A stretch of DNA of 64,000 nt from an uncultured Bacteroidota bacterium (GCA_903847585.1 CAINEC010000174.1:11518-75517); one strand, 5' to 3'. Counted from the stretch's first letter, positions 13,361 to 35,216 are shown. Program-made: numbers and translations. The notes: generated by a model not told the origin, from the letters alone.

Positions 13361-13386
13361 AAGAGGCCCTTAGGGGCCTCTTTTAT
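13361..13386 (+). terminator. Rho-independent terminator after the FISUMP gene
   Basis: aagaggccc-ttag-gggcctctt perfect stem followed by a T-tract, 19 nt after the stop codon. Confidence 0.8.
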
Positions 13387-13536
13387 TTTAATGTTAACAG
13401 AATGTATTTTCAAAGTAAATGTCTTAACATTAAAGTGCTTTAAAGGTAAAGATTTCATAAGTTATTTTTTCAGTTAAATTTTTGTTGGCGTTCTACTTTT
13501 GGTGCAGGAAAAATAAAAAACCAAAATTATAAACCA

Positions 13537-15213: not shown

Positions 15214-15254
15214 GCAATTAGTACAATTAATAATTATTATTAGAAATTTATTTT

Positions 15255-18200
15255 ATGAAAAAAATATTTAGTTTAATATTCGTTTTATCTGCATTGTTTG
15301 TTAGCAAATCGAATGCACAAAATGGATTAGAAAACGTAATCATCGAAAAGTATTACGTTTCTAACGCAGCAGATTCAGCTGCTAGCGCTACTGCAGCTGG
15401 TGGTAACTTACCTGTTGGTTCTGTAACTTACCGTATCTATGCTGATATGTTACCTGGTTATAAATTCCAGGCATTATATGGTGTTGCTGCACATCCTTTA
15501 ACAATTTCTTCTAGTACAACTTTCTTCAACGAAGAAAACTTTGGTGGAACTAGTCCTAATGGTATCTCTGCAAATAACAACAGAAGAAATGCTGTTATGT
15601 TAGATTCTTGGTTCTCAGTAGGAGCTTCAAGTGCTGGTAAAATGGGTGTATTAAAAACAGAAGATACTGATGGTTCAGTAGGTAACGCAAACAGTGTTTT
15701 AGCAAATGCTGATCCTTCTGCCGGAATCGCTATCTCTATTCAAGACGGACAAGTTGTTGCTACTCCTCAAGCAGTAACGTTTGTAGGTATTAATAACACA
15801 GGTAATGGTGACTTAGGAATTTTTGATGCAACTTCTGGCGTAGGTGGTTCATTCACTACATCAAATGGTTCTATCGCATCATTAAATGGTTCAACTGGTC
15901 CAACTGCAACTAACCGTGTATTAATTGGTCAGTTTACTACTAATGGTATCTTCACTTATGCATTAAACATTCAGGTAGGTACTCCTACAGGTGGTGTTCA
16001 AAATTTCGTTTCTTCAAATCCAACAGGGGCTGAAATTACGATTGCAAGTTTATCAGGAACTGTAGGTGCACCAAATGCATTACCAGCTGTATCATTTACT
16101 TCTCCTACTAATGGAGCAAGCTTTATTACAGGTTCATCAATCAGTTTAGAAGCTAATGCAACTGATGCTGATGGTACAATTACTCAAGTTGAATTCAAAG
16201 TTGATGGTGTTTCTGTAGGTGTTGATGCTACTGCTCCTTATACTGCATCTTATACAGGTGTTATTGGAACTCGTACATTAACTGCAACTGCTACAGATGA
16301 TCAAGGTGGTGTTACAACTGCTACAATCACTATCACAGTTTCTGCTAATCCCGCTCCAACTTGTACAATTACAGCTCCAACAAATGGTGCTAGTTTAATT
16401 ACAGGTGATGTAGTAAGTATCACTGCTAATGCAACAGATAATGGTTCTGTTACTCAAGTAGAATTCTTCGTTGACGGTGTATCTATTGGTACTGATGCTA
16501 CTTCTCCTTATGCTGCATCATGGACAGCTGTATTAGGTTCTCATTCTATTACTGCTGTTGCAACTGATGACCAAGCTGCAACAACAACTTCTACAGCAGT
16601 AGGTGTTAGCGTATTAAACAACGTTCCTCCTTCATGTTCAATTACTGCTCCTTCAGCTGGTGCTTTATATACAGCTCCTGCTGCAGTTAATATTACAGCA
16701 ACTGCAACTGACGGTGACGGATCAATCGCTAGCGTTGGTTTCTATGTAAATAACGTTTTAGTTGGAACAGATAACACTTCTCCTTATTCATTCTCTTGGA
16801 CAAGCGTAATCGGAAATGCTTCATTAACAGTTAAAGCAACTGACGATCGTGGTGCTATCACTACTTCTTCTGCAGTAGCTATTAGTATTGCTGATCCAAA
16901 TGCATTGCCGTATAATGTTCAATCTACAGTGGCGTCTTGTACTGAGACTACCGTTTGTATTCCAGTTATTGCATTCGATACAGTTGCTAACGTAATTGGA
17001 TATGATGTAGTAATGAACTACGACAAGACTAAATTAACTCCAACGGGAAATATCACAGTTGGTAGCGACTTAATCAACCCTTCTTTTGTAACGGCTATTA
17101 ACAGCATCGATACAACAAATAGCAAGATTACGATCGCTTTATTTTTAAACTCTGCAGCTCCTGCATCTACTAAGTTTACAGGTGTTGGTAATGTGTTCTG
17201 TGTTGAGTTCAACAAAACTGCAACATTTACTTCAACAGATGTAACAACTGTTTCTGTTTCAACATTACAAGAAAGTTATTTCAATGGTGTAACAGGAAAG
17301 TTAGTTCAATCAGGAACCTATCAAGCATTCAAAGATTCTGCTTACTCTGGTAAGTTAGCATTCTGGTCAAACAACTCGCCTATTAAGTACAACGCAGCTA
17401 ATCCTAATCAGTATTTAGCAACAACAATCAATGGTAACAATGCAAACTGTAATTTACCATCTTCAACTGTTACTAATCCTGATACATTAGGTAATTTCAG
17501 TTACAATGTAAATGATGGTGTTAACATTAACATCAATAAGGATATCCCTGCAACAACGGATATGCAACCAGTTATCAATGGATTCGATGCATTAAGAGCT
17601 CGTCAGGTATTATTAAATGACTTAACGTTCGTTCCTAATGTTTATCAAATCATTGCTATGGATGTTAACCAGGATGGAGTTGTATCTGCTGGTGACGTTT
17701 CTCAGATCAACCAACGTACAGTATTATTAATTGGTGAGTTCCGTCAAGCATGGAACTATAACGCGCAAGGTGTATCAAACGGACAGTTATCTAAAGACTG
17801 GAGTTTCGTTGATTCTGCAACGGTAGCTACAAATGCTGCATTTACAATCTCTGCAACTTATCCAAGTAATGATGGAGTAGGTTTCTCTAAATTTAAAGTT
17901 CCAGTATTGTCATTCTGTTCTCCAGTAAACGCAGTTACTTCTACTGCTTGTCCTACAATTTCAACAATGACTTACAAAGGAATTTTAATTGGTGATATCG
18001 ATGGAAACTATGCTACTGTTAATCCTAACACAGCATTCCGTTCATCTGAAAAAGTTACAATGGATTTATCAAAAGCTACAGTAGAAAATGGTTACATCAA
18101 TGTGCCAGTATTAATTTCTTCTACGCAAGATGTTAATTCATTAGACTTCGCTTTACAATTCAATACTTCTGCAATGTCATTCAATACAGTTGTTGATAGA

Positions 18201-18659
18201 ACAAACACAATGGAAACATTGTCGAACTTCAACAATGATGATCAAACTTTACGTTTCACTTCTAACAGCTTGACAAACTACGCTTTGAACGCTCAGATTT
18301 TAAATGTGAAATTTGCTATCGGAAGTCATGAAGTTTCTGCTAACGATTTCAACGCAGTTGCTGCTTACATCAATGGTGAGCGTGTAGCTTTCGAAGTTGC
18401 TAACGGACAAATTTCAGGAGCTGGTGCTATTGTTAATGTTTATCCTAACCCTGCAACTGATATGATTAATGTAGTTGTAAGTGAAGATGCAACAGTACAA
18501 TTAGTAGACGTATCTGGTCGTCAGGTAATTTATCAAACAAATGTATTAGCTAACGAAGCTGCTTCAATCAGCACTGCTTCTATTGCTAATGGCGTTTACT
18601 TGATGAAAGTTTACAATGGAACTAATGTTTCTGTAAAGAAAGTTGTTGTAAACAAATAA
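15255..18659 (+). CDS. Large multidomain secreted protein, paralogue 4: unassigned N-domain, 3 Ig-like repeats, cohesin-like, dockerin-like, cohesin-like, T9SS CTD
   Basis: 1134 aa. The N-terminus is QNGLENVIIEKYYVSN...GSVTYRIYADMLPGYKFQA...DSWFSVGA...VLIGQFTTNG. The cohesin-like block is VIGYDVVMNYDKTKLTP, the dockerin-like loop is MDVNQDGVVSAGDVSQINQRTVLL, and the CTD is VNVYPNPATDMINV...GVYLMKVYNG...VVVNK. Confidence 0.8.
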   Translation: MKKIFSLIFVLSALFVSKSNAQNGLENVIIEKYYVSNAADSAASATAAGGNLPVGSVTYRIYADMLPGYKFQALYGVAAHPLTISSSTTFFNEENFGGTSPNGISANNNRRNAVMLDSWFSVGASSAGKMGVLKTEDTDGSVGNANSVLANADPSAGIAISIQDGQVVATPQAVTFVGINNTGNGDLGIFDATSGVGGSFTTSNGSIASLNGSTGPTATNRVLIGQFTTNGIFTYALNIQVGTPTGGVQNFVSSNPTGAEITIASLSGTVGAPNALPAVSFTSPTNGASFITGSSISLEANATDADGTITQVEFKVDGVSVGVDATAPYTASYTGVIGTRTLTATATDDQGGVTTATITITVSANPAPTCTITAPTNGASLITGDVVSITANATDNGSVTQVEFFVDGVSIGTDATSPYAASWTAVLGSHSITAVATDDQAATTTSTAVGVSVLNNVPPSCSITAPSAGALYTAPAAVNITATATDGDGSIASVGFYVNNVLVGTDNTSPYSFSWTSVIGNASLTVKATDDRGAITTSSAVAISIADPNALPYNVQSTVASCTETTVCIPVIAFDTVANVIGYDVVMNYDKTKLTPTGNITVGSDLINPSFVTAINSIDTTNSKITIALFLNSAAPASTKFTGVGNVFCVEFNKTATFTSTDVTTVSVSTLQESYFNGVTGKLVQSGTYQAFKDSAYSGKLAFWSNNSPIKYNAANPNQYLATTINGNNANCNLPSSTVTNPDTLGNFSYNVNDGVNININKDIPATTDMQPVINGFDALRARQVLLNDLTFVPNVYQIIAMDVNQDGVVSAGDVSQINQRTVLLIGEFRQAWNYNAQGVSNGQLSKDWSFVDSATVATNAAFTISATYPSNDGVGFSKFKVPVLSFCSPVNAVTSTACPTISTMTYKGILIGDIDGNYATVNPNTAFRSSEKVTMDLSKATVENGYINVPVLISSTQDVNSLDFALQFNTSAMSFNTVVDRTNTMETLSNFNNDDQTLRFTSNSLTNYALNAQILNVKFAIGSHEVSANDFNAVAAYINGERVAFEVANGQISGAGAIVNVYPNPATDMINVVVSEDATVQLVDVSGRQVIYQTNVLANEAASISTASIANGVYLMKVYNGTNVSVKKVVVNK
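16076..16900 (+). repeat. Three tandem ~92-aa Ig-like (Big_7-type) coding repeats inside the 15255 gene
   Basis: The units begin ALPAVSFTSPTNGASFITG, NPAPTCTITAPTNGASLITG and NVPPSCSITAPSAGALYTA. Each contains ATD..G.(I/V)..V.F.V(D/N)..(S/L)(V/I)G.D...PY. and a T(A/V).ATDD.(G/A) block. Confidence 0.8.
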
Positions 18660-18674
18660 TAATTTTCTAATCTT

Positions 18675-18711
18675 AAAAGGTCGGTTCAAGTTTTTTGAAC
18701 CGACCTTTTTT
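18675..18711 (+). terminator. Rho-independent terminator after the 15255 gene
   Basis: ggtcggttcaa-gtttt-ttgaaccgacc perfect 11-bp stem flanked by an upstream A-run and a downstream T6 run. Confidence 0.85.
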
Positions 18712-18736
18712 ATAACTAGAATAAACTAATAAACCA

Positions 18737-19474
18737 ATGATGAAAAAATTACTAATACTATTATTTATTTTCTTTTCATGTAATGTTATGGCTCAAGAAA
18801 ATAAATCAACTGCTGCTCCTGAGCAAATGGATGTGCAAACAATAGACGCTTTAGATAGCGTAATTTTTGATTGCTCCCAATTAACTGGAGTAAGTGGACC
18901 AATACAAATTCCTGTTTCAATTAAATCGGATGATTTAGTTTATTCGGTAGATTTTTCATTGAAGTATGATCATGCAGCTTTGCAATATGATACTACAGTT
19001 AATGTGACAACTTACTTATCAGGATTATCTAATTACTTTACAATCGATTCTACCATTCGTTTTACATCGAGTACGTTTACTCCATGTACAAACGATACAA
19101 CACTGGCATTAATTAAATTTATACTGTTAGCGCCATCGTTTAATAATGGAAGTATTTTTACGTTAAAAGGCTACTTAAATGGTACACTTTGTAGTGTTAA
19201 GTATATACCACCTTCACCGGTTGGACTAACAGAAAATACTATTGAGAATTTTAGTATTTATCCAAATCCAGCAAATGATGCAGTAACAATAAACTTCAAA
19301 AATTCCACAGCATTAAGCGTGGTTAATTTATTCGGACAAACTATTTATTCAGAAAATATTGAAGGTTTATCTTCAACTATGTTGAATACTTCGGAATATG
19401 CGAATGGCGTTTACTTTATTAAAGTAGACACAAATAAAGGAAGCGGGATACAAAAAGTAATTGTATCACATTAA
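18737..19474 (+). CDS. Secreted cohesin-like domain protein with a T9SS CTD
   Basis: Signal peptide. IQIPVSIKSDDLVYSVDFSLKYDHAALQYD...IRFTSSTF parallels the second cohesin-like module of the 15255 product (LDFALQFNTSAMSFN...LRFTSNSL). The CTD is FSIYPNPANDAVTINF...GVYFIKVDT...IVSH. Confidence 0.7.
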   Translation: MMKKLLILLFIFFSCNVMAQENKSTAAPEQMDVQTIDALDSVIFDCSQLTGVSGPIQIPVSIKSDDLVYSVDFSLKYDHAALQYDTTVNVTTYLSGLSNYFTIDSTIRFTSSTFTPCTNDTTLALIKFILLAPSFNNGSIFTLKGYLNGTLCSVKYIPPSPVGLTENTIENFSIYPNPANDAVTINFKNSTALSVVNLFGQTIYSENIEGLSSTMLNTSEYANGVYFIKVDTNKGSGIQKVIVSH

Positions 19475-23006: not shown

Positions 23007-23822
23007 TTATTCCACCACAAACCAAGGATTCAATAAATTTTCCTTGTTGTAAACTAATGGTTCGTTGCTGTCGGTATGACGAACAGTTAAGCCTGCTCCT
23101 AAAGCAATTGCATGTCCTGCGGCCGTATCCCATTCCATAGTAGGAGCAAAGCGAGGATATACCTCTGCTGCGCCTTCAGCAACTAAACAAAGCTTTAATG
23201 AACTTCCTTTCGAAATCAAATTGATTTCTCCATGCTTTGATTTTAACTGATCTATAAAAGCAGTTGTTTCTTCACTCATATGGCTACGACTTGCAACAAC
23301 AGTAAACACGCGATCTCCTTTTGCAATAGGTAGTTTATTGCTTTTGCTAATCAATGAATCAATGAAGTTATCGTTGTTGATCATTTCAACTAATGCATCG
23401 ATGGAGCAATTTAATTTATAAGCACCAACACCTTCTATCGAAAAATATAAATCGTTAATTACAGGTGCGTATATCACTCCTCCAACGGGAGTCTGATTTT
23501 TAATTAAGGCAATGTTAACCGTGAACTCTCCATTGCGCTTGATGAATTCTTTTGTTCCATCTAAAGGATCTACTAGCCAGAATAAATCCCAGTTCTTTCT
23601 ATCTGTATAATCAATCGATTTACCTTCTTCACTTAAAACCGGCAGCGCAGTGCTTTCTAAATATTTTACAATTTCAGAATTAGAACGCTTGTCGGCTTCG
23701 GTAAGCGGACTCTTATCGTCTTTCATTTCAACGATAATTTCTCCTTCGTAAACTTTTAAAATTTCTTTTCCTGCGTGTACGGAAGCAACAATTGCTTGCT
23801 CAATTAATTTAGTGTAGTTCAT
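23007..23822 (-). CDS. cysQ: 3'(2'),5'-bisphosphate nucleotidase CysQ (PAP phosphatase)
   Basis: Inositol-monophosphatase fold motifs LSEE and WLVDPLDGTKEF, plus the C-terminal WDTAAGHAI. The ATG at 23822 (MNYTK...) is preferred; the track start at 23831 is a TTG. Confidence 0.85.
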   Translation of the reverse strand: MNYTKLIEQAIVASVHAGKEILKVYEGEIIVEMKDDKSPLTEADKRSNSEIVKYLESTALPVLSEEGKSIDYTDRKNWDLFWLVDPLDGTKEFIKRNGEFTVNIALIKNQTPVGGVIYAPVINDLYFSIEGVGAYKLNCSIDALVEMINNDNFIDSLISKSNKLPIAKGDRVFTVVASRSHMSEETTAFIDQLKSKHGEINLISKGSSLKLCLVAEGAAEVYPRFAPTMEWDTAAGHAIALGAGLTVRHTDSNEPLVYNKENLLNPWFVVE

Positions 23823-23823
23823 C

Positions 23824-25098
23824 TTAAACAATCATTCCTGCTGCCACTGTTTCGTTGGTAGCTTCATCAATTAAAATAACACTTCCTGTATGACGGTTTT
23901 TACGATATGAATCGAAGTAAAGAGGAACCGTTGTTTTAACATTGATTCGTGCAATATCATTCATCGCAATCTCTTTATCTGATTCATTACGATGCATCGA
24001 GTTAATATCCACTTTATAACGAATGTCTTTAATCACACAACGAGCATCTTTTACCGTATGACGAATAGCATACTTGCCACCAACTTGTAAATTGTTTGCA
24101 TTCATCCAGCAAATCATCACATCAAATTCCTGCTCCATCGATGGAACATTGTTTTCACGCACAATCATATCACCACGACTAATATCTACATCGCGGTCTA
24201 ACGTCATCGTTACCGACATAGGAGCATAAGCTTCTGAAATTTGTTCGCCAAATAACTCAATCGTTTTTACTTCTGCTGTTTCTCCGCTAGGAAGGATTTT
24301 TACTTTATCGCCTGGCTTATAAATTCCACTCGCAATTCTTCCAGCGTAGCCTCTGAAATCGTGATACTCGGTTTGTTGTGGACGAATAACATACTGCACA
24401 GGGAAACGACAATCAATATGATTTTCATCGCTGCCAATATGTAAGTTCTCTAACAAGTACATCAATGTCGTTCCTTGGTACCAAGGCATGTTTGTCGACT
24501 TATCTACAACGTTATCTCCTTTCAATGCACTGATTGGTAAAAAGTGAACGTCTTTAATATCCAGCTTCGTCGATAAGTTTCTGTATTCTTCCACTACCTT
24601 CGAGAATACTTCTTCAGAATAATCAACAAGATCCATTTTATTCACGCAAATAATCAAATGCGGAATTTGCAGCAACGATGCAATGAATGAATGTCGGATA
24701 GTTTGTTCTAAAATTCCTTTACGTGCATCTACTAAAATCAAAGCAGCATTGGCTGTTGATGCACCGGTAACCATGTTACGTGTATACTGAATATGTCCTG
24801 GAGTATCAGCAATAATAAATTTACGTTTCGGAGTAGCAAAATAACGATATGCTACGTCAATTGTAATTCCTTGCTCACGCTCTGCTTTTAGTCCATCAGT
24901 TAATAAACTTAAATCAACGTGCTCAAATCCACGCTGCTGACTTCTCTGTTCAATTGCTTCTAATTGATCTTCAAAAATCTGTTTTGAATCGTAAAGCAAA
25001 CGACCGATTAACGTACTTTTTCCATCATCAACACTACCGGCTGTGGTAAACCGAAGTAGTTCCATGTTCATATAACCTTCACTGCTAAAATCGCTCAT
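23824..25098 (-). CDS. cysN: Sulfate adenylyltransferase subunit 1 (GTPase) CysN
   Basis: G-domain motifs GSVDDGKSTLIGRLL, DTPGH and NKMD. At 424 aa it has no fused APS-kinase domain. Confidence 0.9.
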   Translation of the reverse strand: MSDFSSEGYMNMELLRFTTAGSVDDGKSTLIGRLLYDSKQIFEDQLEAIEQRSQQRGFEHVDLSLLTDGLKAEREQGITIDVAYRYFATPKRKFIIADTPGHIQYTRNMVTGASTANAALILVDARKGILEQTIRHSFIASLLQIPHLIICVNKMDLVDYSEEVFSKVVEEYRNLSTKLDIKDVHFLPISALKGDNVVDKSTNMPWYQGTTLMYLLENLHIGSDENHIDCRFPVQYVIRPQQTEYHDFRGYAGRIASGIYKPGDKVKILPSGETAEVKTIELFGEQISEAYAPMSVTMTLDRDVDISRGDMIVRENNVPSMEQEFDVMICWMNANNLQVGGKYAIRHTVKDARCVIKDIRYKVDINSMHRNESDKEIAMNDIARINVKTTVPLYFDSYRKNRHTGSVILIDEATNETVAAGMIV

Positions 25099-25123
25099 AA
25101 TTTATTTCTCTATCACTTATTAA

Positions 25124-26029
25124 TTAAAAATAACCTGCTTTCTTTCTATCTTCCATTGCTGTTTCACTGCGCTTATCATCATGACGTGTCCCTCGTTCTG
25201 TTACTCTTGATGCAGCAATCTCATCGATAATTTCAGATAGCGTAGAGGCAGGTGACTCAACAGCACCTGTACAAGTCATATCGCCAATGGTGCGGAATCG
25301 TACTGTTCGTGTTTCAATCAAGTCGCTATCTTTTTTCATGATGAATTCAGAGTTGGCTAATAAAACACCATCACGAAGAATGATTTCACGCTCATGCGAA
25401 AAATATATTTCAGGAATAGCAATTTTTTCTAATTGGATATACATCCACACATCCATCTCCGTCCAGTTCGAAAGTGGAAACACTCGGAAGTGCTCGCCCA
25501 TATGCTTTTTGCCATTCAATAACATCCATAATTCAGGACGTTGATTTTTTGGATCCCATTGACCGAATTCATCACGGTGAGAAAAGAAGCGTTCTTTGGC
25601 TCTTGCCTTTTCTTCATCTCTTCTAGCTCCGCCCATAGCAGCATCAACTTTTAACTCTTCTAAGGCGTCAAGCAAAGTAACTGTTTGCAATACATTACGA
25701 CTGGCATTAGGTCCTTTTTCTTCACGCGCTCTTCCTTTGTCGATAGAGTCTTGCACATAACGTACTTCTAATCGAGCACCTATCTCTTCTACCATTTTAT
25801 CTCTGAAAACTAATGTCTCAGGGAAGTTATGTCCGGTATCTACGTGTAATAATGGGAAAGGAATTCTAGCAGGATAAAAAGCTTTTCTTGCAAGGTGTGT
25901 CATAACGATAGAATCCTTGCCTCCAGAAAAGAGCATCGCAGGACGCTCAAACTGTGCAGCTGTCTCGCGGATAACGTAAATGGCTTCCGCTTCCAGCTCA
26001 CGCAAGTGATTCAAGTGATATTTTATCAT
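25124..26029 (-). CDS. cysD: Sulfate adenylyltransferase subunit 2 CysD
   Basis: PAPS-reductase-like fold with [17 protein letters not shown] and C-terminal EDRKKAGYF, all typical of CysD. There is an ATGA overlap with cysC. Confidence 0.9.
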
Positions 26030-26631
26030 AATTTACTAATCTCTATTTTATCTTGAATAAAACTATAAATATTGTTCACGCATTCTTCCAACGTCGCTTT
26101 GTCGGAATGAATATGAATCTCTGGTTGTTCAGGTTTTTCGAATGGGGATGAGATACCTGTGAAATTAGGAATCTCGCCTTTGCGTGCTTTCGCGTATAGC
26201 CCTTTAACATCGCGTTGTTCGCAGACTTCCAAAGGACAATCAACAAAAACTTCCACAAAATCACCTTCAGAAACCAATGACCTTACTGTTGCTCGGTCCT
26301 CTTTGAAAGGAGATATAAATGCTGTGATGACAATGACTCCAGCATCAACAAACAACTTGGCTACTTCTCCAATACGGCGAATGTTTTCTTTTCTTCCTTC
26401 CTCAGAAAAGTCGATGTTTTTATTTAAGCCATGACGAATATTATCGCCATCGAGCAAATAGGTCTTGAAGCCATTCTCATGTAACAACTGCTCTAAGCTA
26501 TCAGCAATAGTGCTTTTGCCTGAACCTGATAAACCTGTTAGCCAGATAATCAATGGCTTTTGCTGAAGCAATTGAATTCTGTCCGCCTGACTGATTTTAT
26601 ACTGTTGTTTAACGATGTTGCTCGATGACAT
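26026..26631 (-). CDS. cysC: Adenylylsulfate (APS) kinase CysC
   Basis: Walker [26 protein letters not shown] and FISPF motifs. The ATG at 26631 (MSSSNIV...) is preferred over the TTG-initiated track start at 26688. Confidence 0.9.
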
Positions 26632-26853
26632 ATTTGACCTTAGGTAAGGTTTACAATTCAATTTGCGAATTTCGCCCTTTTTTCCCAATTATTAAACTTT
26701 TATTTAAGCTATATCAATCAAATTCAATTTAAATTAAGGGGAATAAATGGGGTGTCTACCAATTTAACTTTTTAAACCGGTATAATTAGACTCTGAATAG
26801 CGATAAAAGACAGTTTAAAAAGCACTAAAAAATTAAATCATGTTAGGTTATTA

Positions 26854-27480
26854 ATGCCTCACTACCTAACTTCGTATGCGCTAATTATTATGATTATTTG
26901 CTTCCCAAAAGCTACCCAATTGAAGTCCAGGATAATTTTATTCGCCCTTGTATTGATAGCGGGTTTCGTGTACGCATCTGTTAGACAGGTATATTCTGTT
27001 AAATCTTCAAAGGTTATTTTTAAATCGGTTGCCGAGCTAGAAACAATAACTGCCGAATCAACGACATTAACAGGACTCGTGGATCCCACCAATAAGAACT
27101 TTGCATTTTCAATCAGTAATAAAAGTTTTGATGGCTTTAATAGCTCCCTACAAAAGGAACATTTTAATGACAATTATATTGAAAGTGATAAGTATCCAAC
27201 GACCACGTTTACTGGAAGAATAATAGATGAGATTGATTTTAAAAAGCCAGGCACCTATGTGATTCGTGTAAAAGGGATGTTTAAAGTTAAAGGGGTTACT
27301 AAAGAGGAGCTCATAAAAGGAACAATTGATGTAACTCCTTCAGGATTAAAACTGAACACGAATTTTTCGTTGTTGTTAAGTGACTATGAAATTAGAGTTC
27401 CACGAATCGTAAATCAGAAAATAGCTCCTGAAATAAAAATAACTATTCAGGCTAATCTAGTACTCACTACAATCAAATGA
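26854..27480 (+). CDS. YceI-like (polyisoprenoid-binding lipocalin-like) domain protein
   Basis: FAFSISNKSFDGFNSSLQKEHFNDNYIESDKYPTTTFTG...GVTKE is a YceI family pattern. The stop overlaps the kinase start (ATGA at 27477-27480). Confidence 0.75.
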   Translation: MPHYLTSYALIIMIICFPKATQLKSRIILFALVLIAGFVYASVRQVYSVKSSKVIFKSVAELETITAESTTLTGLVDPTNKNFAFSISNKSFDGFNSSLQKEHFNDNYIESDKYPTTTFTGRIIDEIDFKKPGTYVIRVKGMFKVKGVTKEELIKGTIDVTPSGLKLNTNFSLLLSDYEIRVPRIVNQKIAPEIKITIQANLVLTTIK

Positions 27481-30374
27481 GGAAAATAGGATTACTCGTT
27501 TTCTTATTGTTTATCGCTTGTATCACCTCAAATAGGTGTGAAGCTACTATTTTGGATTTCAATAAGCTATTGCAGGTTGATAAGGAAAATAAAAATCTAA
27601 AAATTCAAAATTTATTTCAGGATAGCCAAGGGTTTATTTGGGTAGGCACCGATCACGGACTTTATCAGTTTGATGGATTTGATTTTGAAAAGTCAATCGC
27701 CGATTCTGCTAAAGTAAAAGCCTCCATCAGTTGTATTTATCAGGATAAGATTCAGACAATTTGGGTAGCTACGGAGGAAGGGAAATTATTTCGACGTAGG
27801 TCTGATAAGTTTAAAGAAGTTTCTACGCCATTTCATTCAGCGGTGAAAGCCATCATTAATCGTTCAAACGATGAATTATGGATTGCAACTTATGGAGAAG
27901 GTATCTATTCTTTTAAAAATGATCAATGGAAGAAACTTTTATCTGGCGATGCGCAATTCATTTATGCAATGGTGATTACTGCTGATAATAAATTGTTGGT
28001 GGGTACAGATATCGGCTTGTTAAAATTTAACAAAGACAATAGTTTTCAACTGCTAAATACAAAAAATGGGTTGCCTGAAAATATTGTTAGAGAGGTGAAG
28101 CTAATTGATAATTCGAAAGCAATTTTAGGATTTGAAGAAGCGGGTATTTGTTACATGGATATTACTACTAATCGTTTTTCAAAACCTGCTAATCTTAGTA
28201 CTTGGAATTTAGGTGCTGTTAATGAAATTAATTATAGTAATAATGAGTGCTGGGTCGGGACCGAAAAAAATGGAATGGTTTCATTCTCTACTTTAAAAAA
28301 TGGCCAAATAAAATTTTATAATTCAACTAACGGTTTTGAGTATACGAAGATCGCTTATTCAATATTTGATAGGGAAGGAAACTTATGGATTGCTGCTGAT
28401 AATAAGTTGATTTTTCGACCAGCAAAAAAAATTGAATTCATTAATAATTTAACTGGCGATTTTAACGATATTCAAGCGATTGCTAATGACCCAGAAGGCT
28501 ATTTATGGTTCGCAAATAAAAATGGATTATTTAAATGTCATACAGCTGTATCTAATTATAATGTTCAGCAAATAAAAGTTCCATCCATTTCAAATTTGCA
28601 TATTGTTTCATTGTTTCTGGATGATTGGGGCTATCTGTGGATTGGAACTTTTGATAATGGATTGTATCGCTTAAATACCTTTAATAACGAAATCAAAAAA
28701 TTTGGAATTGCTGATGGATTAAAGAATGCTAATATTGTTTCTATTCAAGGGAAGGATAAAAAAATATGGTTAGCTACATTGGGAGGCTTAGCAGAATGTA
28801 CAATTACTGAATCAAAAAATAATCCGGGAGATTTAACCTATACGTTTACAAGCTTTGGCGGAGCAAATAGTCCAGGGGAAATATTTGTTTACGATGTTTT
28901 TGTCGACTCAAAAAAAAGAGTTTGGTTTGGTACTGATGGAAAAGGATTGAGCTGCCTTGATAAAGGAAAATTTAAGAGCTTCAGCGCAATTGACAATAAG
29001 AGTAACATAGTAGTTTATTCGATCACTGAAGATAAAAAAGGAAATATCTGGTTCAGTACATTAAACCATGGAATATATCGATATGATGGTGCAAAATTTT
29101 ATCACATTGGTATTAAAGAAGGGTTGCGTGATAATGAGATTACAGGTATTACAACTGATTGGCAAGGGAATATTATTGTGGTTCATTCAAAAGGTATTGA
29201 TAAGATCAATTCAGGCACTTTCGAAGTAGATTATATAGGAGCAGAATCAGGGATAGAAAATTTAAATTGTAATTTAAATGCACTTTGTAATGATGTATAT
29301 GGAAATATTTGGATAGGAAAGAACGATGGATTAATGAAATTAATTAAATCTCGTTATTCAGAAGTTACAAAGCCGGTCACGTCCATTCGAAGAATATATG
29401 CATTTATGAAGCATGGATTGAGTGCAAAGGATAGTATTTTCGAGTACAATCAAAATCAGATTTCACTAGAGTTTGTCGGTTTGTGGTTTGGTAATCCCGA
29501 TGCTGTTCATTATCGCTATCGACTCATAGGACTTTCTAACCAATGGATATCTACAAAAGATAAAATTGTTACATTCCCTAACCTGCCTCCTGGAAAATAT
29601 ACTTTTGAATTAGAGGCGTCAGTCAATAATCGATTTATTAATCCATCATCAGCAAGCTACTCATTTAAAATAAATAAACCACTAACAAAACAATGGTGGT
29701 TTATTACATTAATTATTTTGTTGAGTGCCGGAGCTTTAATTTGGTATATCCGCGACCGTGATGTTCGTTTTAGAAATTTAGAAGCGATGAAAAAAGAAAA
29801 GATGGAGTATCAATATGAAACATTGAAAAGTCAAATTAATCCTCATTTTCTTTTTAATAGTTTTAATACTTTAATTACGATTATTGAGGATAATCAGGAT
29901 AAGGCAGTAGACTATGTAGAAACACTATCTGATTATTTCAGAAGCATGCTTAATTATCGTGATAAAGATGTAATTCAATTAAGTGAAGAGTTAGAAATTG
30001 TAAGCGCCTATTTCTATTTACAACAAAAACGATTTGGCGAATATCTATCATTAAACATTAATGTTTCTTCACACTTTAAAGAGGGTTTTTCTGTTCCTCC
30101 ATTATCAATACAATTGTTAGTTGAAAATGCAATTAAGCATAATGCCGTCTCGCATGAAACGCCATTGCAAATCGATATCTCAATTGATGATAAAAATCAG
30201 TTGTTGACTATTTCTAATAATTTAAATCCCAAAAAGAACCATGACCCTTCAACTGGTATCGGATTAAATAATATTTTTAGCCGTTATAAAATATTGACTG
30301 AACAGGATGTTACCGTTATCCGAACCGATAAACAATTTATTGTTGAATTACCACTAATTAAAAACAAGACATGA
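27477..30374 (+). CDS. Sensor histidine kinase: periplasmic two-component-regulator propeller repeats, Y_Y_Y domain, TM helix, LytS-type His_kinase/HATPase
   Basis: Repeated D..G.IW(V/I)GT..GL motifs. Y_Y_Y region HYRYRLIGLSNQWISTKDKIVTFPNLPPGKYTFELEA. TM helix WWFITLIILLSAGALIWYI. Kinase motifs LKSQINPHFLFNSFNTL and LVENAIKHN. Confidence 0.9.
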   Translation: MRKIGLLVFLLFIACITSNRCEATILDFNKLLQVDKENKNLKIQNLFQDSQGFIWVGTDHGLYQFDGFDFEKSIADSAKVKASISCIYQDKIQTIWVATEEGKLFRRRSDKFKEVSTPFHSAVKAIINRSNDELWIATYGEGIYSFKNDQWKKLLSGDAQFIYAMVITADNKLLVGTDIGLLKFNKDNSFQLLNTKNGLPENIVREVKLIDNSKAILGFEEAGICYMDITTNRFSKPANLSTWNLGAVNEINYSNNECWVGTEKNGMVSFSTLKNGQIKFYNSTNGFEYTKIAYSIFDREGNLWIAADNKLIFRPAKKIEFINNLTGDFNDIQAIANDPEGYLWFANKNGLFKCHTAVSNYNVQQIKVPSISNLHIVSLFLDDWGYLWIGTFDNGLYRLNTFNNEIKKFGIADGLKNANIVSIQGKDKKIWLATLGGLAECTITESKNNPGDLTYTFTSFGGANSPGEIFVYDVFVDSKKRVWFGTDGKGLSCLDKGKFKSFSAIDNKSNIVVYSITEDKKGNIWFSTLNHGIYRYDGAKFYHIGIKEGLRDNEITGITTDWQGNIIVVHSKGIDKINSGTFEVDYIGAESGIENLNCNLNALCNDVYGNIWIGKNDGLMKLIKSRYSEVTKPVTSIRRIYAFMKHGLSAKDSIFEYNQNQISLEFVGLWFGNPDAVHYRYRLIGLSNQWISTKDKIVTFPNLPPGKYTFELEASVNNRFINPSSASYSFKINKPLTKQWWFITLIILLSAGALIWYIRDRDVRFRNLEAMKKEKMEYQYETLKSQINPHFLFNSFNTLITIIEDNQDKAVDYVETLSDYFRSMLNYRDKDVIQLSEELEIVSAYFYLQQKRFGEYLSLNINVSSHFKEGFSVPPLSIQLLVENAIKHNAVSHETPLQIDISIDDKNQLLTISNNLNPKKNHDPSTGIGLNNIFSRYKILTEQDVTVIRTDKQFIVELPLIKNKT

Positions 30375-31138
30375 GAATTCTGATTATCGAAGATGAAACG
30401 CCAGCGGCAGACCGCCTGAAAAAAATGATTTTGGATTTTGAACCTAATGCAGAAATTACAAGCAACTTAGTAAGTATAGCTTCTTCTGTAAAATGGTTAA
30501 AAGAAAATCCTTCACCCGATCTAATCTTTATGGATATTCATTTATCTGATGGAGATAGTTTTGAAATTTTTAATGAACAGGAAGTGAAATCACCTGTTGT
30601 GTTTGTTACTGCATATGATCAATATGCGCTGGATGCTTTTAAGGTAAATAGCATTGATTATTTACTAAAGCCAGTTAAAAAAGAAGATTTGTCGAGAGCC
30701 CTCGAAAAGTATAAACAACGAGGCAGCTCAAATATGCAGCAAATGATGGATTTGCTAAAGCAAATGAATGTAACTCCATCAAAAAAGGAAACGCAAAAAA
30801 GAATAGTCATTCGTTATGGTGATACCATTAAAATGGTAGAAATTGCAGACGTGGCGTATTTTTATACAGAAGATAAAATCAACTTTTTGTGCACGAAAGA
30901 TAATGTACGTTATCCGATTGATCAGAACTTAGATGAATTGGAAAGTATGGTGGATGGCGATGTTTTTTTTAGAATTAATAGACAGTACATCATCAATATA
31001 AATGCAATTGAAAAAATGCTTGCCTGGTCGAAATCACGAGTGAAAGTGATATTAAAACCAGCATGTGATAATGAAACCATAGTTAGTACTGAACGTTCGC
31101 CAAATTTTAAAGAATGGCTAACCGGATTGAAAAATTAA
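30371..31138 (+). CDS. LytTR-family response regulator
   Basis: REC domain (MRILIIEDE...DLIFMDIHLSDG...VFVTAYDQYA) followed by a LytTR DNA-binding domain (FFRINRQYIININAI). There is an ATGA overlap with the kinase. Confidence 0.9.
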   Translation: MRILIIEDETPAADRLKKMILDFEPNAEITSNLVSIASSVKWLKENPSPDLIFMDIHLSDGDSFEIFNEQEVKSPVVFVTAYDQYALDAFKVNSIDYLLKPVKKEDLSRALEKYKQRGSSNMQQMMDLLKQMNVTPSKKETQKRIVIRYGDTIKMVEIADVAYFYTEDKINFLCTKDNVRYPIDQNLDELESMVDGDVFFRINRQYIININAIEKMLAWSKSRVKVILKPACDNETIVSTERSPNFKEWLTGLKN

Positions 31139-31238
31139 AATCGTTATAATCCCTTTCAACGCTCAAAATAACCCGCTCGGCAACTTGCGTGAATCAAATT
31201 CAAAATGTGACATTACCTTTACAAAAAATTAAAGTTCT

Positions 31239-31988
31239 ATGAATCTAAGGTATAGCGTTTTTATTTTGACTTTGTCTTTTTTTGTCATGACTTTTTATGC
31301 ATGCCAGCATGAACCTGTAGAAACAATAAACGGGAACAATGGGGGCGGGAATGGGAATGGTAACGGTAACAATTCTTTGCCCCCTTGTGACCCGGATACG
31401 GTCTACTTTGAGCAGGACATTCTGCCACTTTTCATTTCTAACTGTACAATGTCAGGATGCCATAATTCAACAACACATGCAGAAGGAATCGATTTAAGTT
31501 CATACGCAGCTGTTATGAGTTCTAACGTATTAACACCTGGTCAGGCCTGGAACAGTGAATTAGTTGAAGCTATTACAGAAACAGACCCTGATAAAATAAT
31601 GCCTCCGCCGCCAATGCCACCAATGCCTGCTTCTCAAATTAATTTGATTAAGAAGTGGATTAATCAAGGGGCTTTAAATCTTAAATGTGATAATGGCTGT
31701 GATACAACAAATGTTACTTATAATGGAACAATAAAACCGCTCCTTCAAAATAGCTGTACTGGTTGCCATAATACTTCTAGTCCTGGTGGAGGATATAACT
31801 TGACTAATTATGCCGACGACGCAGTGGGAAATTTTGGAGTTCAGTCTTCTGCTTTGAATGGTTCTTTGTCGGGTTCTGTAAATCATACTGGTTTGTATTC
31901 GCACATGCCAAAAGGAGGATCTAAGCTCCCACAATGTCAATTAGATCAAATTAGAATCTGGGTAGATGCCGGTGCTCCAAATAATTAG
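31239..31988 (+). CDS. Lipoprotein with two PSCyt1-like c-type cytochrome domains
   Basis: Lipobox MTFYAC. Two ~95-aa repeats each begin CD..(T/N)V(Y/T)(F/Y)...I.PL and carry a Cys...Cys-His heme motif (CTMSGCH, then CTGCH), a distal MP, and (I/L)..W(I/V).(Q/A)GA.N. Confidence 0.7.
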   Translation: MNLRYSVFILTLSFFVMTFYACQHEPVETINGNNGGGNGNGNGNNSLPPCDPDTVYFEQDILPLFISNCTMSGCHNSTTHAEGIDLSSYAAVMSSNVLTPGQAWNSELVEAITETDPDKIMPPPPMPPMPASQINLIKKWINQGALNLKCDNGCDTTNVTYNGTIKPLLQNSCTGCHNTSSPGGGYNLTNYADDAVGNFGVQSSALNGSLSGSVNHTGLYSHMPKGGSKLPQCQLDQIRIWVDAGAPNN

Positions 31989-32000
31989 TAAATTTGCTGA

Positions 32001-32360
32001 ATGAAAATTGTCTTTCAAATACTCTTCTTTTTAGCTGTAGGCAGTTTAACAACCGGCTGTTATTACGATAATGAAGAATACCTCTATGGTACTTGTGATA
32101 CTACGAATGTCACTTTTTCTAGGGATATTAAACCAATTATGGATGCTAATTGTATTAATTGCCATAATAGTGGAACAATCAATCTAACAACGTATGAAGG
32201 TGTAAAAGCAAAAGTAAGCGACAGTACACTTTATAAATCTATTTCCTATTCTTATTCAGGTGTAAACTCTTCTAAGAATATGCCTTCATCAGGTAAATTA
32301 GACGATTGCTCAATTAATAAAGTAAAAGCGTGGATTGATGAAGGAGCAATAAATAATTAA
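32001..32360 (+). CDS. Lipoprotein with a single PSCyt1-like c-type cytochrome domain
   Basis: Lipobox LTTGC. CDTTNVTFSRDIKPIMDANCINCHNSG...NMPSSG...VKAWIDEGAINN is a third copy of the repeat in the preceding gene. Confidence 0.7.
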   Translation: MKIVFQILFFLAVGSLTTGCYYDNEEYLYGTCDTTNVTFSRDIKPIMDANCINCHNSGTINLTTYEGVKAKVSDSTLYKSISYSYSGVNSSKNMPSSGKLDDCSINKVKAWIDEGAINN

Positions 32361-32363
32361 AAC

Positions 32364-32810
32364 ATGAAAAATAAAAAAGTAATCATTGTTATTGTTGCTT
32401 TAGCTCTTATTGCGTTAATTGGAGGGTATGCATATTATTATGTTACCAAAGATGAAGTTGGTCTAGCAGAAACAACAGCCGATTTTACAATCTCTTGTGA
32501 TGATATTTTTAAAGAGTTTACAGCAAATAAAGATGCATCAATGACAAAATACAGTCGTAAAACGGTAGCATTAAGTGGTAAAGTGAGCTCAGTAGAAAAG
32601 GCAGGAGAGAATGTAACTGTTATTTTTAATACGACTGCTGGTGATGGTATTATTAGATGTTTACTTGATACGCTTGATGCACCTAAACTACGGGCAAAAA
32701 ATGGTGATATGCTAAAACTAAAAGGGTCATATACTGGTTTTGAAGATGATTTAATGTTTGTTTCAGTACCTGAACTTAGTTTTAACCGATGTGTTATTAT
32801 GCCTAATTAA
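32364..32810 (+). CDS. Membrane-anchored OB-fold protein (tRNA_anti-like family), function unknown
   Basis: N-terminal TM anchor followed by DDIFKEFTANKDASMTKYSRKTVALSGKVSSVE...IRCLL...LKLKGSYTGFEDD...LSFNRC. I recognise this pattern as the PF12869-type family from memory. Confidence 0.5.
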   Translation: MKNKKVIIVIVALALIALIGGYAYYYVTKDEVGLAETTADFTISCDDIFKEFTANKDASMTKYSRKTVALSGKVSSVEKAGENVTVIFNTTAGDGIIRCLLDTLDAPKLRAKNGDMLKLKGSYTGFEDDLMFVSVPELSFNRCVIMPN

Positions 32811-32837
32811 AACTTACATTCCCAAACCAATATTAAT

Positions 32838-33680
32838 ATGAAAAAAAACTTACTTATTTTAATTTCAGCGGGCATAGTCATAGCTATATGCTCAGCAACT
32901 TTAACAGTTAACAGTAATTCAACAGGAGCTGATCCAGGATATGCTAATGATCCATCAAACGGTAACTCAAATTGTACAAACTGTCATGGTGGAACTGCTA
33001 CCAACGCGTCAGCAGCGCAGGCTTCTATTACTTCAAATATTCCAGCAGCCGGATATACACCTGGCGCAACTTATACGATTACAGCTACTGTAAATTATAC
33101 AGGTCGTTCTAAATTTGGATTCCAAGTAAGTCCGCAAAATGCAGCCGGTACTAAATTAGGTACTTTAATCAATACAGGAAGCCAAACAAAATTGGTGGGT
33201 AGCAGCAAATATGTTACGCATACTTCTTCAGGAAATTCTGGTACAAATACAAAATCGTGGACATTTGATTGGACAGCTCCAGCAGCAGGCACTGGTGCGG
33301 TTACATTTTATGGATCATTTATGGCTGCCAATGGAACCGGAACTACAAGTGGTGACATCGTATTCAAAACGACTTATACTGTTTCGGAAGCTGTAGCAAG
33401 TGGAATAAATGAAGTAGAAGCTAATACCAACGCATTAACGATAATCAATTTAAAGAATGCATTACAGATTTCTTACAATGCACAATCTTCAGCAATAGCT
33501 AACGTTGAATTATATAATTTAAATGGAACACTTGTGAGTGCTGCTTCATTCGAGCAACAAAATGTAGGTACTGTAAACTTAAACTTTGATATAAAAGAAG
33601 GTTTGAATACAGGAATTTATATTGTTAAAGTTCAGCAAGGAACGCAAGTTTTAACAAAGAAATTAGCACTCGTATTTTAA
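32838..33680 (+). CDS. Secreted CXXCH-containing beta-sandwich (reeler/DOMON-like) protein with a T9SS CTD
   Basis: Signal peptide. NCTNCHGG lies near the mature N-terminus, followed by YTPGATYTITATV, KFGFQVSPQN and WTFDWTAPAAGTGAVTFYG. The CTD is LQISYN...VELYNLNGTLV...GIYIVKVQQG...KLALVF. Confidence 0.6.
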   Translation: MKKNLLILISAGIVIAICSATLTVNSNSTGADPGYANDPSNGNSNCTNCHGGTATNASAAQASITSNIPAAGYTPGATYTITATVNYTGRSKFGFQVSPQNAAGTKLGTLINTGSQTKLVGSSKYVTHTSSGNSGTNTKSWTFDWTAPAAGTGAVTFYGSFMAANGTGTTSGDIVFKTTYTVSEAVASGINEVEANTNALTIINLKNALQISYNAQSSAIANVELYNLNGTLVSAASFEQQNVGTVNLNFDIKEGLNTGIYIVKVQQGTQVLTKKLALVF

Positions 33681-33698
33681 TTTTAAAGAGTATTACCC

Positions 33699-34250
33699 AT
33701 GAAAAAAATTCTTTTATCCTTAATGCTGTTGGTAGGGTTAAATGTCTATGCACAGGATACACTTTCAACAAATAATGCGACTATTAACTTTGATGCTACT
33801 TCTGCAGGATCTCCTGAGAAAATCGAGGCTATCAGTAAGCAAGTGAAAAGTAAATTATTAGTTAAAACGGGGGATTTTGTTTTTGCTATTCAAATGCAGT
33901 CTTTTGAATTTGAAAAGTCATTGATGAAAGATCATTTTAATGAAAATTATGTTGAAAGTACAAAGTACCCTCGAGCAACATTTAAAGGAGCTATACAAGA
34001 CTTTGCTAAAGTAAACTTTGCAAAAGATGGAAAGTACCCAGTTGTTGTTAAAGGTACAATGGATATGCATGGCGTGAAAAAAGAAGTTACTGCCAATGGT
34101 ACTCTTACAATTTCTGGTGATAAAGTTACAGCTTCATCAAGTTTTAAATTGTTACTTTCAGACTTTAATATTGAAGTCCCTCCAGTAGTTGGTGATAAAC
34201 TCGCAAAGCAGGCAACAATCACTGTTAATGCTACTTATAACAAAAAGTAA
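33699..34250 (+). CDS. YceI-like domain protein (second copy)
   Basis: Signal peptide. FVFAIQMQSFEFEKSLMKDHFNENYVESTKYPRATFKG...MHGVKKE aligns with the 26854 product. Confidence 0.8.
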   Translation: MKKILLSLMLLVGLNVYAQDTLSTNNATINFDATSAGSPEKIEAISKQVKSKLLVKTGDFVFAIQMQSFEFEKSLMKDHFNENYVESTKYPRATFKGAIQDFAKVNFAKDGKYPVVVKGTMDMHGVKKEVTANGTLTISGDKVTASSSFKLLLSDFNIEVPPVVGDKLAKQATITVNATYNKK

Positions 34251-34255
34251 TTCGA

Positions 34256-35164
34256 ATGAACCAGTACCAATTAAATAAGTATCTGTTTTTATTCGCTTTG
34301 GTGATTCTATCATCATCTTCGATATTTGCACAAGATGATTTGTTGGGATCATTAGACGAGGAAAAGCCTCCTCGCGAGTACACACGTAATGCTTTTAAAT
34401 CTACGCGTGTAATTACAGCACAATCCATGGAGCAATTGTCGAAAGGAGTTCTTGATTTTCGAATTCTGCATCGCTTCGGAAGAGTAAACAGCGGAGCCTA
34501 TGATGCCTTCGGTTTTGATCAAGCAACGATACGACTTGCACTCGATTATGGTATAACCGATCGTTTAACAGTAGGTATTGGAAGAAGTAGTAATAAGAAA
34601 GAAATTGATGGCTTTATTAAGTATCGTCCAATTTGGCAATCAAACGACGGATGGCCTTTCTCAGTACTCTTAACTTCAGGTTTTGTAAAAGATGGTTTAA
34701 AGTGGGCGGATCCTAACCGTGATAATTATGCATCATCAAGATATTCTTATTTCCATCAAGTTTTGGTGGGAAGAAAATTCTCTGATGCCTTCTCGTTACA
34801 ATTAATGCCAACGTTAGTACATCGTAATCTTGTTCTTTCAGAAGAAGATAATAATGATATCATTAGTATTGGAGTAGGTTCACGTTTAAAATTGAGCAAT
34901 CGTTTAGCCGTAACGGTAGAGTATTTCCGTCATATTACTGATTTGCCAACAGGTTACTATGATCCATTATCAATCGGATTTGATATTGAAACCGGAGGAC
35001 ATGTTTTCCAATTGCATTTCACTAATTCTTTAGGTATGAATGAACGTTCGTATTTGGTAGGTACAGATGGACAATGGTCGAAGGGTGATATTCACTTCGG
35101 ATTTAATATCTCTCGTGTATTCACTATTTCAAAACCGAAAGAGTTTCGCAAGAAAAAAGAATGA
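34256..35164 (+). CDS. Outer-membrane beta-barrel protein, DUF5777-like
   Basis: Signal peptide. FKSTRVITAQSMEQLSKGVLDFRILHRFG...RLALDYGITDRLTVGIGR...GHVFQLHFTNS...IHFGFNISRVF shows alternating-strand beta-barrel character. The family was recognised from memory. Confidence 0.6.
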   Translation: MNQYQLNKYLFLFALVILSSSSIFAQDDLLGSLDEEKPPREYTRNAFKSTRVITAQSMEQLSKGVLDFRILHRFGRVNSGAYDAFGFDQATIRLALDYGITDRLTVGIGRSSNKKEIDGFIKYRPIWQSNDGWPFSVLLTSGFVKDGLKWADPNRDNYASSRYSYFHQVLVGRKFSDAFSLQLMPTLVHRNLVLSEEDNNDIISIGVGSRLKLSNRLAVTVEYFRHITDLPTGYYDPLSIGFDIETGGHVFQLHFTNSLGMNERSYLVGTDGQWSKGDIHFGFNISRVFTISKPKEFRKKKE

Positions 35165-35180
35165 GCAATTTTATAGAACG

Positions 35181-35216
35181 AAAAAGGGGCAGTCTCGTTG
35201 AGATCGCCCCTTTTTT
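35181..35216. terminator. Bidirectional Rho-independent terminator between convergent genes
   Basis: aaaaa-ggggcagtctc-gtt-gagatcgcccc-tttttt is a GC-rich stem with one internal mismatch pair, with an A-run on one side and a T-run on the other. It lies between the stops at 35164 (+) and 35232 (-). Confidence 0.75.

Follow-up and report, generated by a model that had tools for sequence, protein, structure and literature searches.

A conserved gene module pairing c-type cytochrome lipoproteins with a DUF5777 barrel in Bacteroidota, and its possible role in outer-envelope electron transfer

Organization of the locus

The 64-kb window analysed here, that is the whole stretch of DNA under study, comes from an uncultured Bacteroidota bacterium. 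At positions 31239-35164 (+) it carries a gene cluster for two c-type cytochrome lipoproteins, an OB-fold protein, a secreted haem protein, a YceI-family protein and an outer-membrane beta-barrel of family DUF5777. The cluster is composed of six open reading frames (ORFs), with 3-27 nt between neighbours. The initial annotation had counted seven genes, but no seventh can be accommodated because the gaps are this short. Its descriptions of the six products were borne out by Pfam and NCBIfam matches. The extent given for the cluster was right for the six downstream genes and left out a conserved sensor module, made of YceI, kinase and LytTR regulator genes, located upstream on the same strand. 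The resulting nine genes (26854-35164) are co-directional and tightly packed, and their arrangement is conserved. The neighbours of the unit are divergent sulfate-activation genes at one end and convergent polysaccharide-synthesis genes at the other. We propose, with confidence and doubt about evenly balanced, that these nine genes form one two-component-regulated outer-envelope electron-transfer module, widespread in Bacteroidota. The genes and features of the unit are the following.

26854-27480 (+): YceI paralogue, 208 residues, signal peptide; PF04264 45.2 bits (cutoff 23.7)
27477-30374 (+): sensor histidine kinase, 965 residues; PF07494 110.5, PF07495 55.2 and PF06580 82.4 bits
30371-31138 (+): LytTR-type response regulator, 255 residues; PF00072 47.9 and PF04397 74.4 bits
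31151-31178 (+): direct repeat, candidate LytTR binding site; CCCTTTC-N14-CCCGCTC, 21-bp period
31214-31221 (+): TACCTTTA, near match to the Bacteroidota -7 element, read from the sequence, 18 nt before the start codon
31239-31988 (+): cyt2, dihaem c-type cytochrome lipoprotein, 249 residues; PSCyt1 domain with CX4CH and class I domain with CXXCH
32001-32360 (+): cyt1, monohaem class I c-type cytochrome lipoprotein, 119 residues; one CXXCH (CINCH)
32364-32810 (+): OB-fold protein, 148 residues, N-terminal hydrophobic membrane anchor; PF12869 50.4 bits
32838-33680 (+): choice-of-anchor V protein (CAV), secreted monohaem protein, 280 residues; NF041895 105.3 bits (cutoff 42), TIGR04183 35 bits (cutoff 23)
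33699-34250 (+): YceI-family periplasmic protein, 183 residues, signal peptide; PF04264 54.2 bits (cutoff 23.7)
34256-35164 (+): DUF5777 outer-membrane beta-barrel, 302 residues, signal peptide; PF19089 309.8 bits (cutoff 23.1)
35180-35216 (both strands): bidirectional intrinsic terminator; folding, shuffles, flanking A and T tracts

The terminator hairpin folds with -22.2 kcal/mol on the plus strand and -19.1 kcal/mol on the minus strand, and none of 200 shuffled sequences was as stable. It is flanked by A and T tracts. Its stem contains an internal mismatch, hence it was not flagged by a simple terminator scan; folding on both strands confirmed the strong bidirectional terminator that had been annotated at the end of the cluster. 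An Rfam scan of the 64-kb window gave no match.

Conservation across Bacteroidota

DUF5777 is a large family, with more than 8,000 clusters at 90% identity. A library of representatives at 50% identity contains 2,369 members at E<=1e-3, of which 1,635 remain at E<=1e-10, and at least 598 loci were found in species-representative genomes. Eight proteins of the window were mapped onto the ORFs of the 80 best of these loci, 62 of which have complete flanks. The 80 loci span Chitinophagaceae, Saprospiraceae, Lewinellaceae, Flavobacteriales, Cyclobacteriaceae, Bacteroidales and Lentimicrobium. Isolates in the set include Adhaeribacter terreus and Taibaiella koreensis; matches to metagenome-assembled genomes (MAGs) suggest Chitinophaga as well.

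Conservation of the gene order across Bacteroidota, which the initial annotation had suggested looking into, is strong over the 80 loci. In the loci with complete flanks, DUF5777 is accompanied by one or more cytochrome genes in 60 of 62 cases, by at least two cytochrome ORFs in 45, by YceI in 52 and by the OB-fold gene in 50. The commonest order is cyt-cyt-OB-YceI-DUF5777. Orthologues of the kinase and regulator are present within 7 kb of the module in 16 of 49 loci. The region 5' of the orthologous kinase can be seen in 15 of the 80 loci, and in every one of them, as in locus L087, a YceI gene comes immediately before the kinase gene. The conserved unit is cytochrome(s)-OB-YceI-DUF5777 together with a YceI-kinase-LytTR sensor module. 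A minimal form made of only two genes, a dihaem cyt2 and DUF5777, occurs between unrelated genes in Saprospiraceae and Lewinellaceae. The cytochrome and the barrel are the irreducible pair. One Lewinellaceae MAG contains both the full regulated module (L053) and the minimal cytochrome-barrel pair (L060), showing that paralogous copies can coexist.

All-against-all clustering of the ORFs in the 80 loci revealed no conserved extra partner, whether enzyme, ATPase or inner-membrane redox protein. It yielded lineage-specific synteny only (an ABC ATPase, an AraC regulator and an LpxA-like gene). The absence of a cytoplasmic enzyme and of a transporter ATPase, first noted for the window's cluster, therefore holds over the whole set, in the cluster and beside it. 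In locus L088 (13093-17008), the module adjoins a gene for a NapC/NirT-type multihaem cytochrome, and NrfD and 4Fe-4S genes are found beyond one further gene. These genes could encode a quinol-oxidising partner located in the inner membrane; such a layout is not conserved elsewhere among the loci.

Recurrence of this gene order over 80 loci is far beyond chance. A set of chance neighbours without joint function would be in line with CAV homologues, which often stand alone elsewhere. It is contradicted by a gene order kept across several Bacteroidota families and orders, by the 3-27 nt gaps, by a common promoter repeat and terminator and by a domain fusion that joins two of the products (see below). 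We give it almost no weight, and synteny effectively refutes it.

Haem proteins, barrel and sensor

cyt2 is composed of two haem domains. The first one matches PSCyt1 with 55.5 bits (cutoff 22) and contains the haem motif CTMSGCH (CX4CH). The second one is a class I cytochrome c domain with the motif CTGCH (CXXCH). Two PSCyt1-like domains had been annotated; both would bind haem, going by their motifs, and only the first passes the PSCyt1 threshold. The second domain of cyt2 and cyt1 match Cytochrome_CBB3 and PccH with 21-23 bits, under the gathering scores. Searched as a profile, the cyt1 family gave matches to cytochrome c6 (E 6.9e-5), to the cytochrome subunits of bc1 complexes, to CcoP and to c552. 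No match of cyt2 to a solved structure was detectable by sequence.

Sequence alignments reveal strong conservation of the haem sites. Both CX4CH and CXXCH are kept in 50 of 61 long cytochrome homologues. Short homologues have CXXCH (46/72) or CX4CH (21/72), and a haem motif is missing in only 3 of 133 homologues. Every cytochrome domain retains C..CH, a Met-Pro pair and then a C-terminal WIxxGAxNN motif. In the cyt1 family, C51, C54, H55, M94 and P95 are invariant. Since only one histidine is present in cyt1, His/Met must be the ligation of its haem. Judged from these motifs, cyt2 and cyt1 together contain three c cytochrome domains of class I type, and both proteins are predicted to be class I electron carriers with His/Met ligation. 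Enzyme fusions were sought among cyt2 homologues and none was found; the longer ones gain only additional cytochrome domains.

Lipoboxes are conserved in both cytochromes. From the lipid-modified cysteine onwards the sequence reads C-[KR]-H-[ED] in cyt2 and, with an acidic stretch, C-Y-Y-D-x-E-E in cyt1. The latter resembles the lipoprotein export signal of Bacteroidetes (PMC5080379), so that cyt1 may be surface-exposed. In the stretch +2 to +4 after the lipid-modified cysteine of cyt2 (31305-31310 in the window), the histidine located two residues after the cysteine is near-invariant, C-[KR]-H-[ED] being found in 37 of 43 sequences. It might play a part in sorting or act as a ligand of haem or of a metal.

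The DUF5777 match spans the full profile (1-247). An AlphaFold2 model shows 12 strands (pLDDT 70.6, pTM 0.67). Search for structural similarities with Foldseek revealed 12-14-strand outer-membrane barrels with a probability of 1.00. The matches, at TM scores of about 0.4-0.5, include NanC/KdgM, FapF, OmpG, the translocators of NalP and EstA and a COG4313 channel. The model thus points to a generic small outer-membrane barrel without a specific family. A profile search of solved structures by sequence gave no informative relative. Strong conservation is observed in a segment preceding the barrel, FK..RVIN.HS.E, and in the motif GFDIETGGHVFQLHFTN. When inward-facing positions are assigned by strand alternation in the model, the conserved ones (D67, R69, R73, D243, E245 and H254) would be charged or polar. 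Variants of the family were found among proteins P0361, P0374, P0368 and P0371: one of 615 residues has two tandem barrels, one has a 225-residue C-terminal extension following a Lys-rich linker, and two others bear long Ala/Lys/Glu-rich extensions.

CAV contains, in order, a signal peptide, a CXXCH motif, a Reeler-like beta-sandwich (choice-of-anchor V) and a type A C-terminal sorting domain of the type IX secretion system (T9SS). The sorting domain matches PF18962 with 34.8 bits (cutoff 27), and its profile matches the solved T9SS C-terminal domains 8glk_D and 8glj_D. Apart from these, a sequence search of solved structures gave no informative relative. The AlphaFold2 model (pLDDT 79.9) shows an N-terminal beta-sandwich and a C-terminal sandwich. 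The N-terminal domain is similar to the Reeler domain of F-spondin (2zot, 3coo), with TM scores of 0.70-0.73, root-mean-square deviations of 2.8-3.4 Å and 19% identity in Foldseek. CAV itself has no match to Reeler PF02014 at E<=0.1; its homologues P0173, P0220 and P0403 do match this family. Over 24 diverse homologues, the haem motif (CXXCH or CX4CH) and three tyrosines are invariant, and no second histidine or methionine is. The CX4CH variant C-x-x-S-G-C-H is common to two unrelated folds, being found in domain 1 of cyt2 (31443-31463) and in CAV homologues P0203, P0220 and P0240. Its presence in both PSCyt1 and Reeler-like folds suggests a shared maturation preference.

The CAV gene lies beside DUF5777 in 5 of the 62 loci with complete flanks. 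It is located between the OB-fold and YceI genes in the window and in L001-3, 5' of the cytochrome genes in L058 and 3' of the barrel gene in L023. Elsewhere, its homologues stand alone in unrelated contexts, and no informative gene context was found around them. For this reason CAV is an accessory of the module, a lineage-specific and occasional add-on.

A further link comes from protein P0403 (456 residues), in which a choice-of-anchor V CXXCH domain (98 bits) follows the signal peptide and precedes DUF5777 (278 bits). Its haem domain is 36% identical to the window's CAV (E 6e-28). The fusion is encoded on two independent contigs, each with a small cytochrome gene before it; two such genes are visible on the longer contig, L089. 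With the three gene positions, linkage between CAV and the module is therefore observed in four independent ways. From its domain matches, the CXXCH Reeler-like domain occurs both as T9SS cargo in the cluster and fused to the barrel. The fusion is direct evidence that the CAV haem domain and the barrel work together. The order of P0403, signal peptide, passenger-like domain, linker and C-terminal 12-strand barrel, recalls type Va autotransporters such as NalP and EstA. However, no autotransporter Pfam match is observed, and TM scores with the NalP and EstA translocators are only about 0.38-0.40.

The fusion also brings to mind Cyc2 of iron oxidisers, a fused cytochrome-porin that works with the dihaem Cyc1. 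In P0403, CXXCH near the mature N-terminus is followed by a barrel and small cytochrome genes are adjacent, which mirrors this layout. A specific form of the electron-transfer proposal would then be that a barrel-associated haem protein oxidises Fe(II) or reduces Fe(III) or Mn, the dihaem lipoprotein relaying electrons to or from the respiratory chain. The presumably polar lumen would suit ions, and a Reeler domain is also present in eukaryotic ferric-chelate reductase 1. On the other hand, no metal-related genes are conserved nearby in the 80 loci, the hosts are ordinary heterotrophic Bacteroidota, and the barrel has 12 strands in the model, against about 16 predicted for Cyc2, with no sequence relationship to it. 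We consider such metal redox chemistry quite unlikely. Membership of the Cyc2 family itself, which has CXXCH and barrel in one chain, was rejected: the window's DUF5777 has no cysteine, and the haem domain of P0403 is unrelated to that of Cyc2.

The OB-fold protein has no solved relative in a sequence search of structures. A role as a membrane-anchored haem chaperone resembling CcmE was considered and rejected, as the protein contains no histidine. The cluster YceI, for which a sequence search of solved structures gave no informative relative, is presumed from its family to be an isoprenoid or quinone carrier. Structures of YceI-family proteins are cited in PMC8981238 as binding polyisoprenoids or ubiquinone-8.

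Such binding, the two YceI paralogues, one of them coupled to the kinase, and the presence of the COG4313 channel and of FapF among the fold matches of the barrel would fit a module that imports or exports a lipophilic isoprenoid or quinone. DUF5777 would be the channel, the two YceI proteins carrier and sensor, and the cytochromes would merely oxidise or reduce the cargo. However, the minimal conserved unit is a cytochrome and a barrel without YceI, P0403 joins a haem domain to the barrel, and the predicted charged and polar inward residues are unlike those of a greasy channel. We therefore regard lipophilic cargo transport as rather unlikely. The initial annotation had left a choice between redox and lipid handling. 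Redox is retained, and pure lipid handling is less favoured because the irreducible core is a cytochrome and a barrel.

Upstream, the YceI paralogue gene overlaps the kinase start by 4 nt. The protein shares the motif HFN(E/D)NY-ES-KYP with the cluster YceI and is likely a periplasmic co-sensor. The kinase is composed of a periplasmic Reg_prop beta-propeller, a Y_Y_Y domain and a LytS/YehU-type His_kinase domain. The nearest NCBIfam models of the regulator are BtsR (95.4 bits, equivalog cutoff 246) and LytR (91.3 bits, cutoff 375). Both scores are far below the cutoffs, and equivalog membership with BtsSR or LytSR was rejected.

The 100-nt gap between the regulator gene and cyt2 holds the direct repeat at 31151-31178, the sole exact match to CCCTTTC-N14-CCCGCTC in the window. 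Thus, a LytTR-type repeat precedes the cytochrome operon. The consensus of Bacteroidota -7 promoter elements is TAnnTTTG. A perfect -7 element, TAGCTTTG, is found in L001 at the position equivalent to that of TACCTTTA in the window, which may itself work as a promoter element. In about 12 of the 80 related loci, among them L001-3, L026, L033, L049, L051, L053, L059, L064 and L068, the first cytochrome gene has a 21-bp-period repeat with the consensus CCCGTTCAG-N11-TTCCCGTTC on its 5' side. Some of these loci lack an adjacent kinase or regulator. In L053 the repeat is also present 5' of the sensor-side YceI gene; no convincing LytTR repeat was found at that place in the window (5' of 26854-27480). 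Published LytTR sites consist of 9-11 nt repeats separated by 11-13 nt (PMC4847170), and the architecture of the window's repeat matches them, which makes it a candidate LytTR site. All features of LytTR two-component systems are present, namely a PF06580 kinase, a receiver and LytTR regulator, and a predicted direct-repeat operator conserved in related loci. The kinase core, the LytTR regulator and the 21-bp-period repeat are as in BtsSR/YehUT, YpdAB and LytSR (PMC4847170). Unlike these systems, the sensor of the module is a large periplasmic beta-propeller/Y_Y_Y protein rather than a 5TM Lyt domain, and a YceI gene always precedes it.

A dedicated envelope sensor would also be expected of a periplasmic defence against oxidative or redox stress, or of a redox buffer, in which cytochromes and YceI-bound quinone would detoxify oxidants and the barrel would be structural only. 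In E. coli, yceI is stress-induced and lies beside yceJ (cybB), the gene for the inner-membrane cytochrome b561. Coupling of YceI and cytochrome genes is common to this pair and the module, although the E. coli pair has an inner-membrane cytochrome b561, no c-type lipoproteins and no barrel. A YceJ-YceI chain was proposed for Shewanella (PMC8981235). Class I cytochromes with His/Met ligation are carriers and not peroxidases, and the strict cytochrome-barrel pairing and the fusion would be left unexplained. Stress defence thus appears improbable.

The sulfate-activation set at 23007-26688 (-), with cysQ-like, cysN, cysD and cysC-like genes, lies between polysaccharide-synthesis clusters, which hints at a sulfated surface polysaccharide. 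An ORF of more than 2,670 codons at 55989-63998 (+) continues past the window end; its N-terminus is signal-anchor-like and it probably encodes a giant cell-surface protein. A run of T9SS cargo genes at 7056-19474 (+) encodes four Por_Secre_tail proteins, one of 1,134 residues with Big_7 repeats. These genes are interleaved with a CarboxypepD_reg/Plug TonB-dependent-receptor-like gene and with a gene for a Fib_succ_major protein.

A possible outer-envelope electron-transfer module

The electron-transfer proposal is drawn from carrier-type cytochromes, an obligatory cytochrome-barrel pair, a fusion of haem domain and barrel, and the location of all products in the envelope, in agreement with the initial annotation. 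We infer the function of the module, including extracellular electron transfer itself, from this composition. The periplasmic cyt2 would exchange electrons with the respiratory chain or with an isoprenoid quinone (menaquinone) bound to YceI. It would hand them to the monohaem cyt1, and in the lineage of the window they would continue to the haem protein CAV displayed through the T9SS. The DUF5777 barrel would serve as outer-membrane anchor or passage. The cluster YceI would be a quinone carrier and its paralogue part of the sensor. The operon would be turned on by the upstream YceI, the Y_Y_Y kinase and the LytTR regulator in response to a periplasmic signal, probably lipophilic or redox. Electrons may run either way, and the external partner may be a metal, an organic oxidant or an enzyme.

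Known outer-membrane conduits include MtrCAB of Shewanella, the Pcc system OmaB/OmbB/OmcB of Geobacter and Cyc2. As in Mtr and Pcc, a barrel gene adjoins genes for c-type cytochrome lipoproteins and every product is in the envelope; as in Cyc2, a fused form of haem domain and barrel exists (P0403). The differences are marked. The module barrel has 12 strands in the model, versus about 16-26 in the three systems, and the module proteins have 1-2 haems each, versus 8-10 in Mtr and Pcc. No sequence homology is observed, and YceI, the OB-fold protein and the LytTR two-component system have no counterpart there. Membership in the Mtr/Pcc type was rejected, as this type has cytochromes with at least 8 haems and a porin of 20-26 strands. 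Overall, membership in a known family fails on strand number, haem number and homology.

Another parallel is provided by Cbp2D and Cbp2E of Cellvibrio japonicus and by a protein of Saccharophagus degradans, where a YceI-type quinone-binding module is associated with monohaem c-type cytochromes outside the cytoplasm. Secreted Cbp2D contains a YceI-like ubiquinone-binding domain as well as two c-type cytochrome domains, of which X183 reduces lytic polysaccharide monooxygenases in vitro (PMC8981238; PMC12542752). Among domains of the Cbp2D type, X158 is YceI-like and X183 and X132 are c-type cytochromes, with an electron-donor role in vitro for X183 (PMC8981238). In Cbp2D the modules are fused in one secreted protein with a CBM2, in Gammaproteobacteria, and neither a barrel nor a dedicated two-component system is present; in the module they are encoded by separate genes. 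No characterised system with this gene set was matched in the literature, as had been stated for the window's cluster. No papers were found that mention DUF5777 or choice-of-anchor V, and a search combining YceI with Bacteroidota returned nothing relevant. The parts belong to known families or DUFs, and their assembly is a new variation on the theme of cytochrome plus outer-membrane barrel.

Several observations weigh against electron transfer by the module. The 80 loci have no conserved point of electron entry near it, be it an inner-membrane quinol dehydrogenase or another one. It contains only 3-4 haems. Going by the model, whose confidence is moderate, a 12-strand barrel would not be wide enough to enclose a folded cytochrome in the manner of MtrB. 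Moreover, the P0403-type fusion is rare, with one case in about 270 DUF5777 proteins inspected, and CAV homologues outside the module are solitary genes with unrelated surroundings.

A more specific version can be put forward only tentatively, and we think it is more probably wrong than right. DUF5777 may represent a new class of small barrels in the outer membrane, with the task of anchoring or translocating haem proteins. Such a barrel and one or two class I cytochrome lipoproteins would together make up a minimal trans-outer-membrane electron conduit of 2-4 haems. YceI-bound menaquinone would be both periplasmic electron carrier and signal for the YceI/Y_Y_Y-kinase/LytTR system.

DUF5777 is spread over Chitinophagaceae, Saprospiraceae, Flavobacteriales, Cyclobacteriaceae and environmental Bacteroidales, which are dominant groups in soil, freshwater and activated sludge. 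We know of no outer-membrane redox conduit in organisms bearing DUF5777. If the mechanism is true, the module would possibly be a new conduit class, and if the conduit reading is true, the first such system for ordinary aerobic Bacteroidota. If electrons do move across or at the outer membrane, it would be a cheap, few-haem alternative to Mtr, Pcc and Cyc2. Thanks to the conserved LytTR operator candidate and the natural fusion, the hypothesis can be tested directly in carriers that grow in culture. If true, it would assign roles to YceI and to DUF5777, choice-of-anchor V and PF12869, three families whose function is unknown, and it would open a way to study how aerobic Bacteroidota deal with metals, humics or oxidative enzymes.

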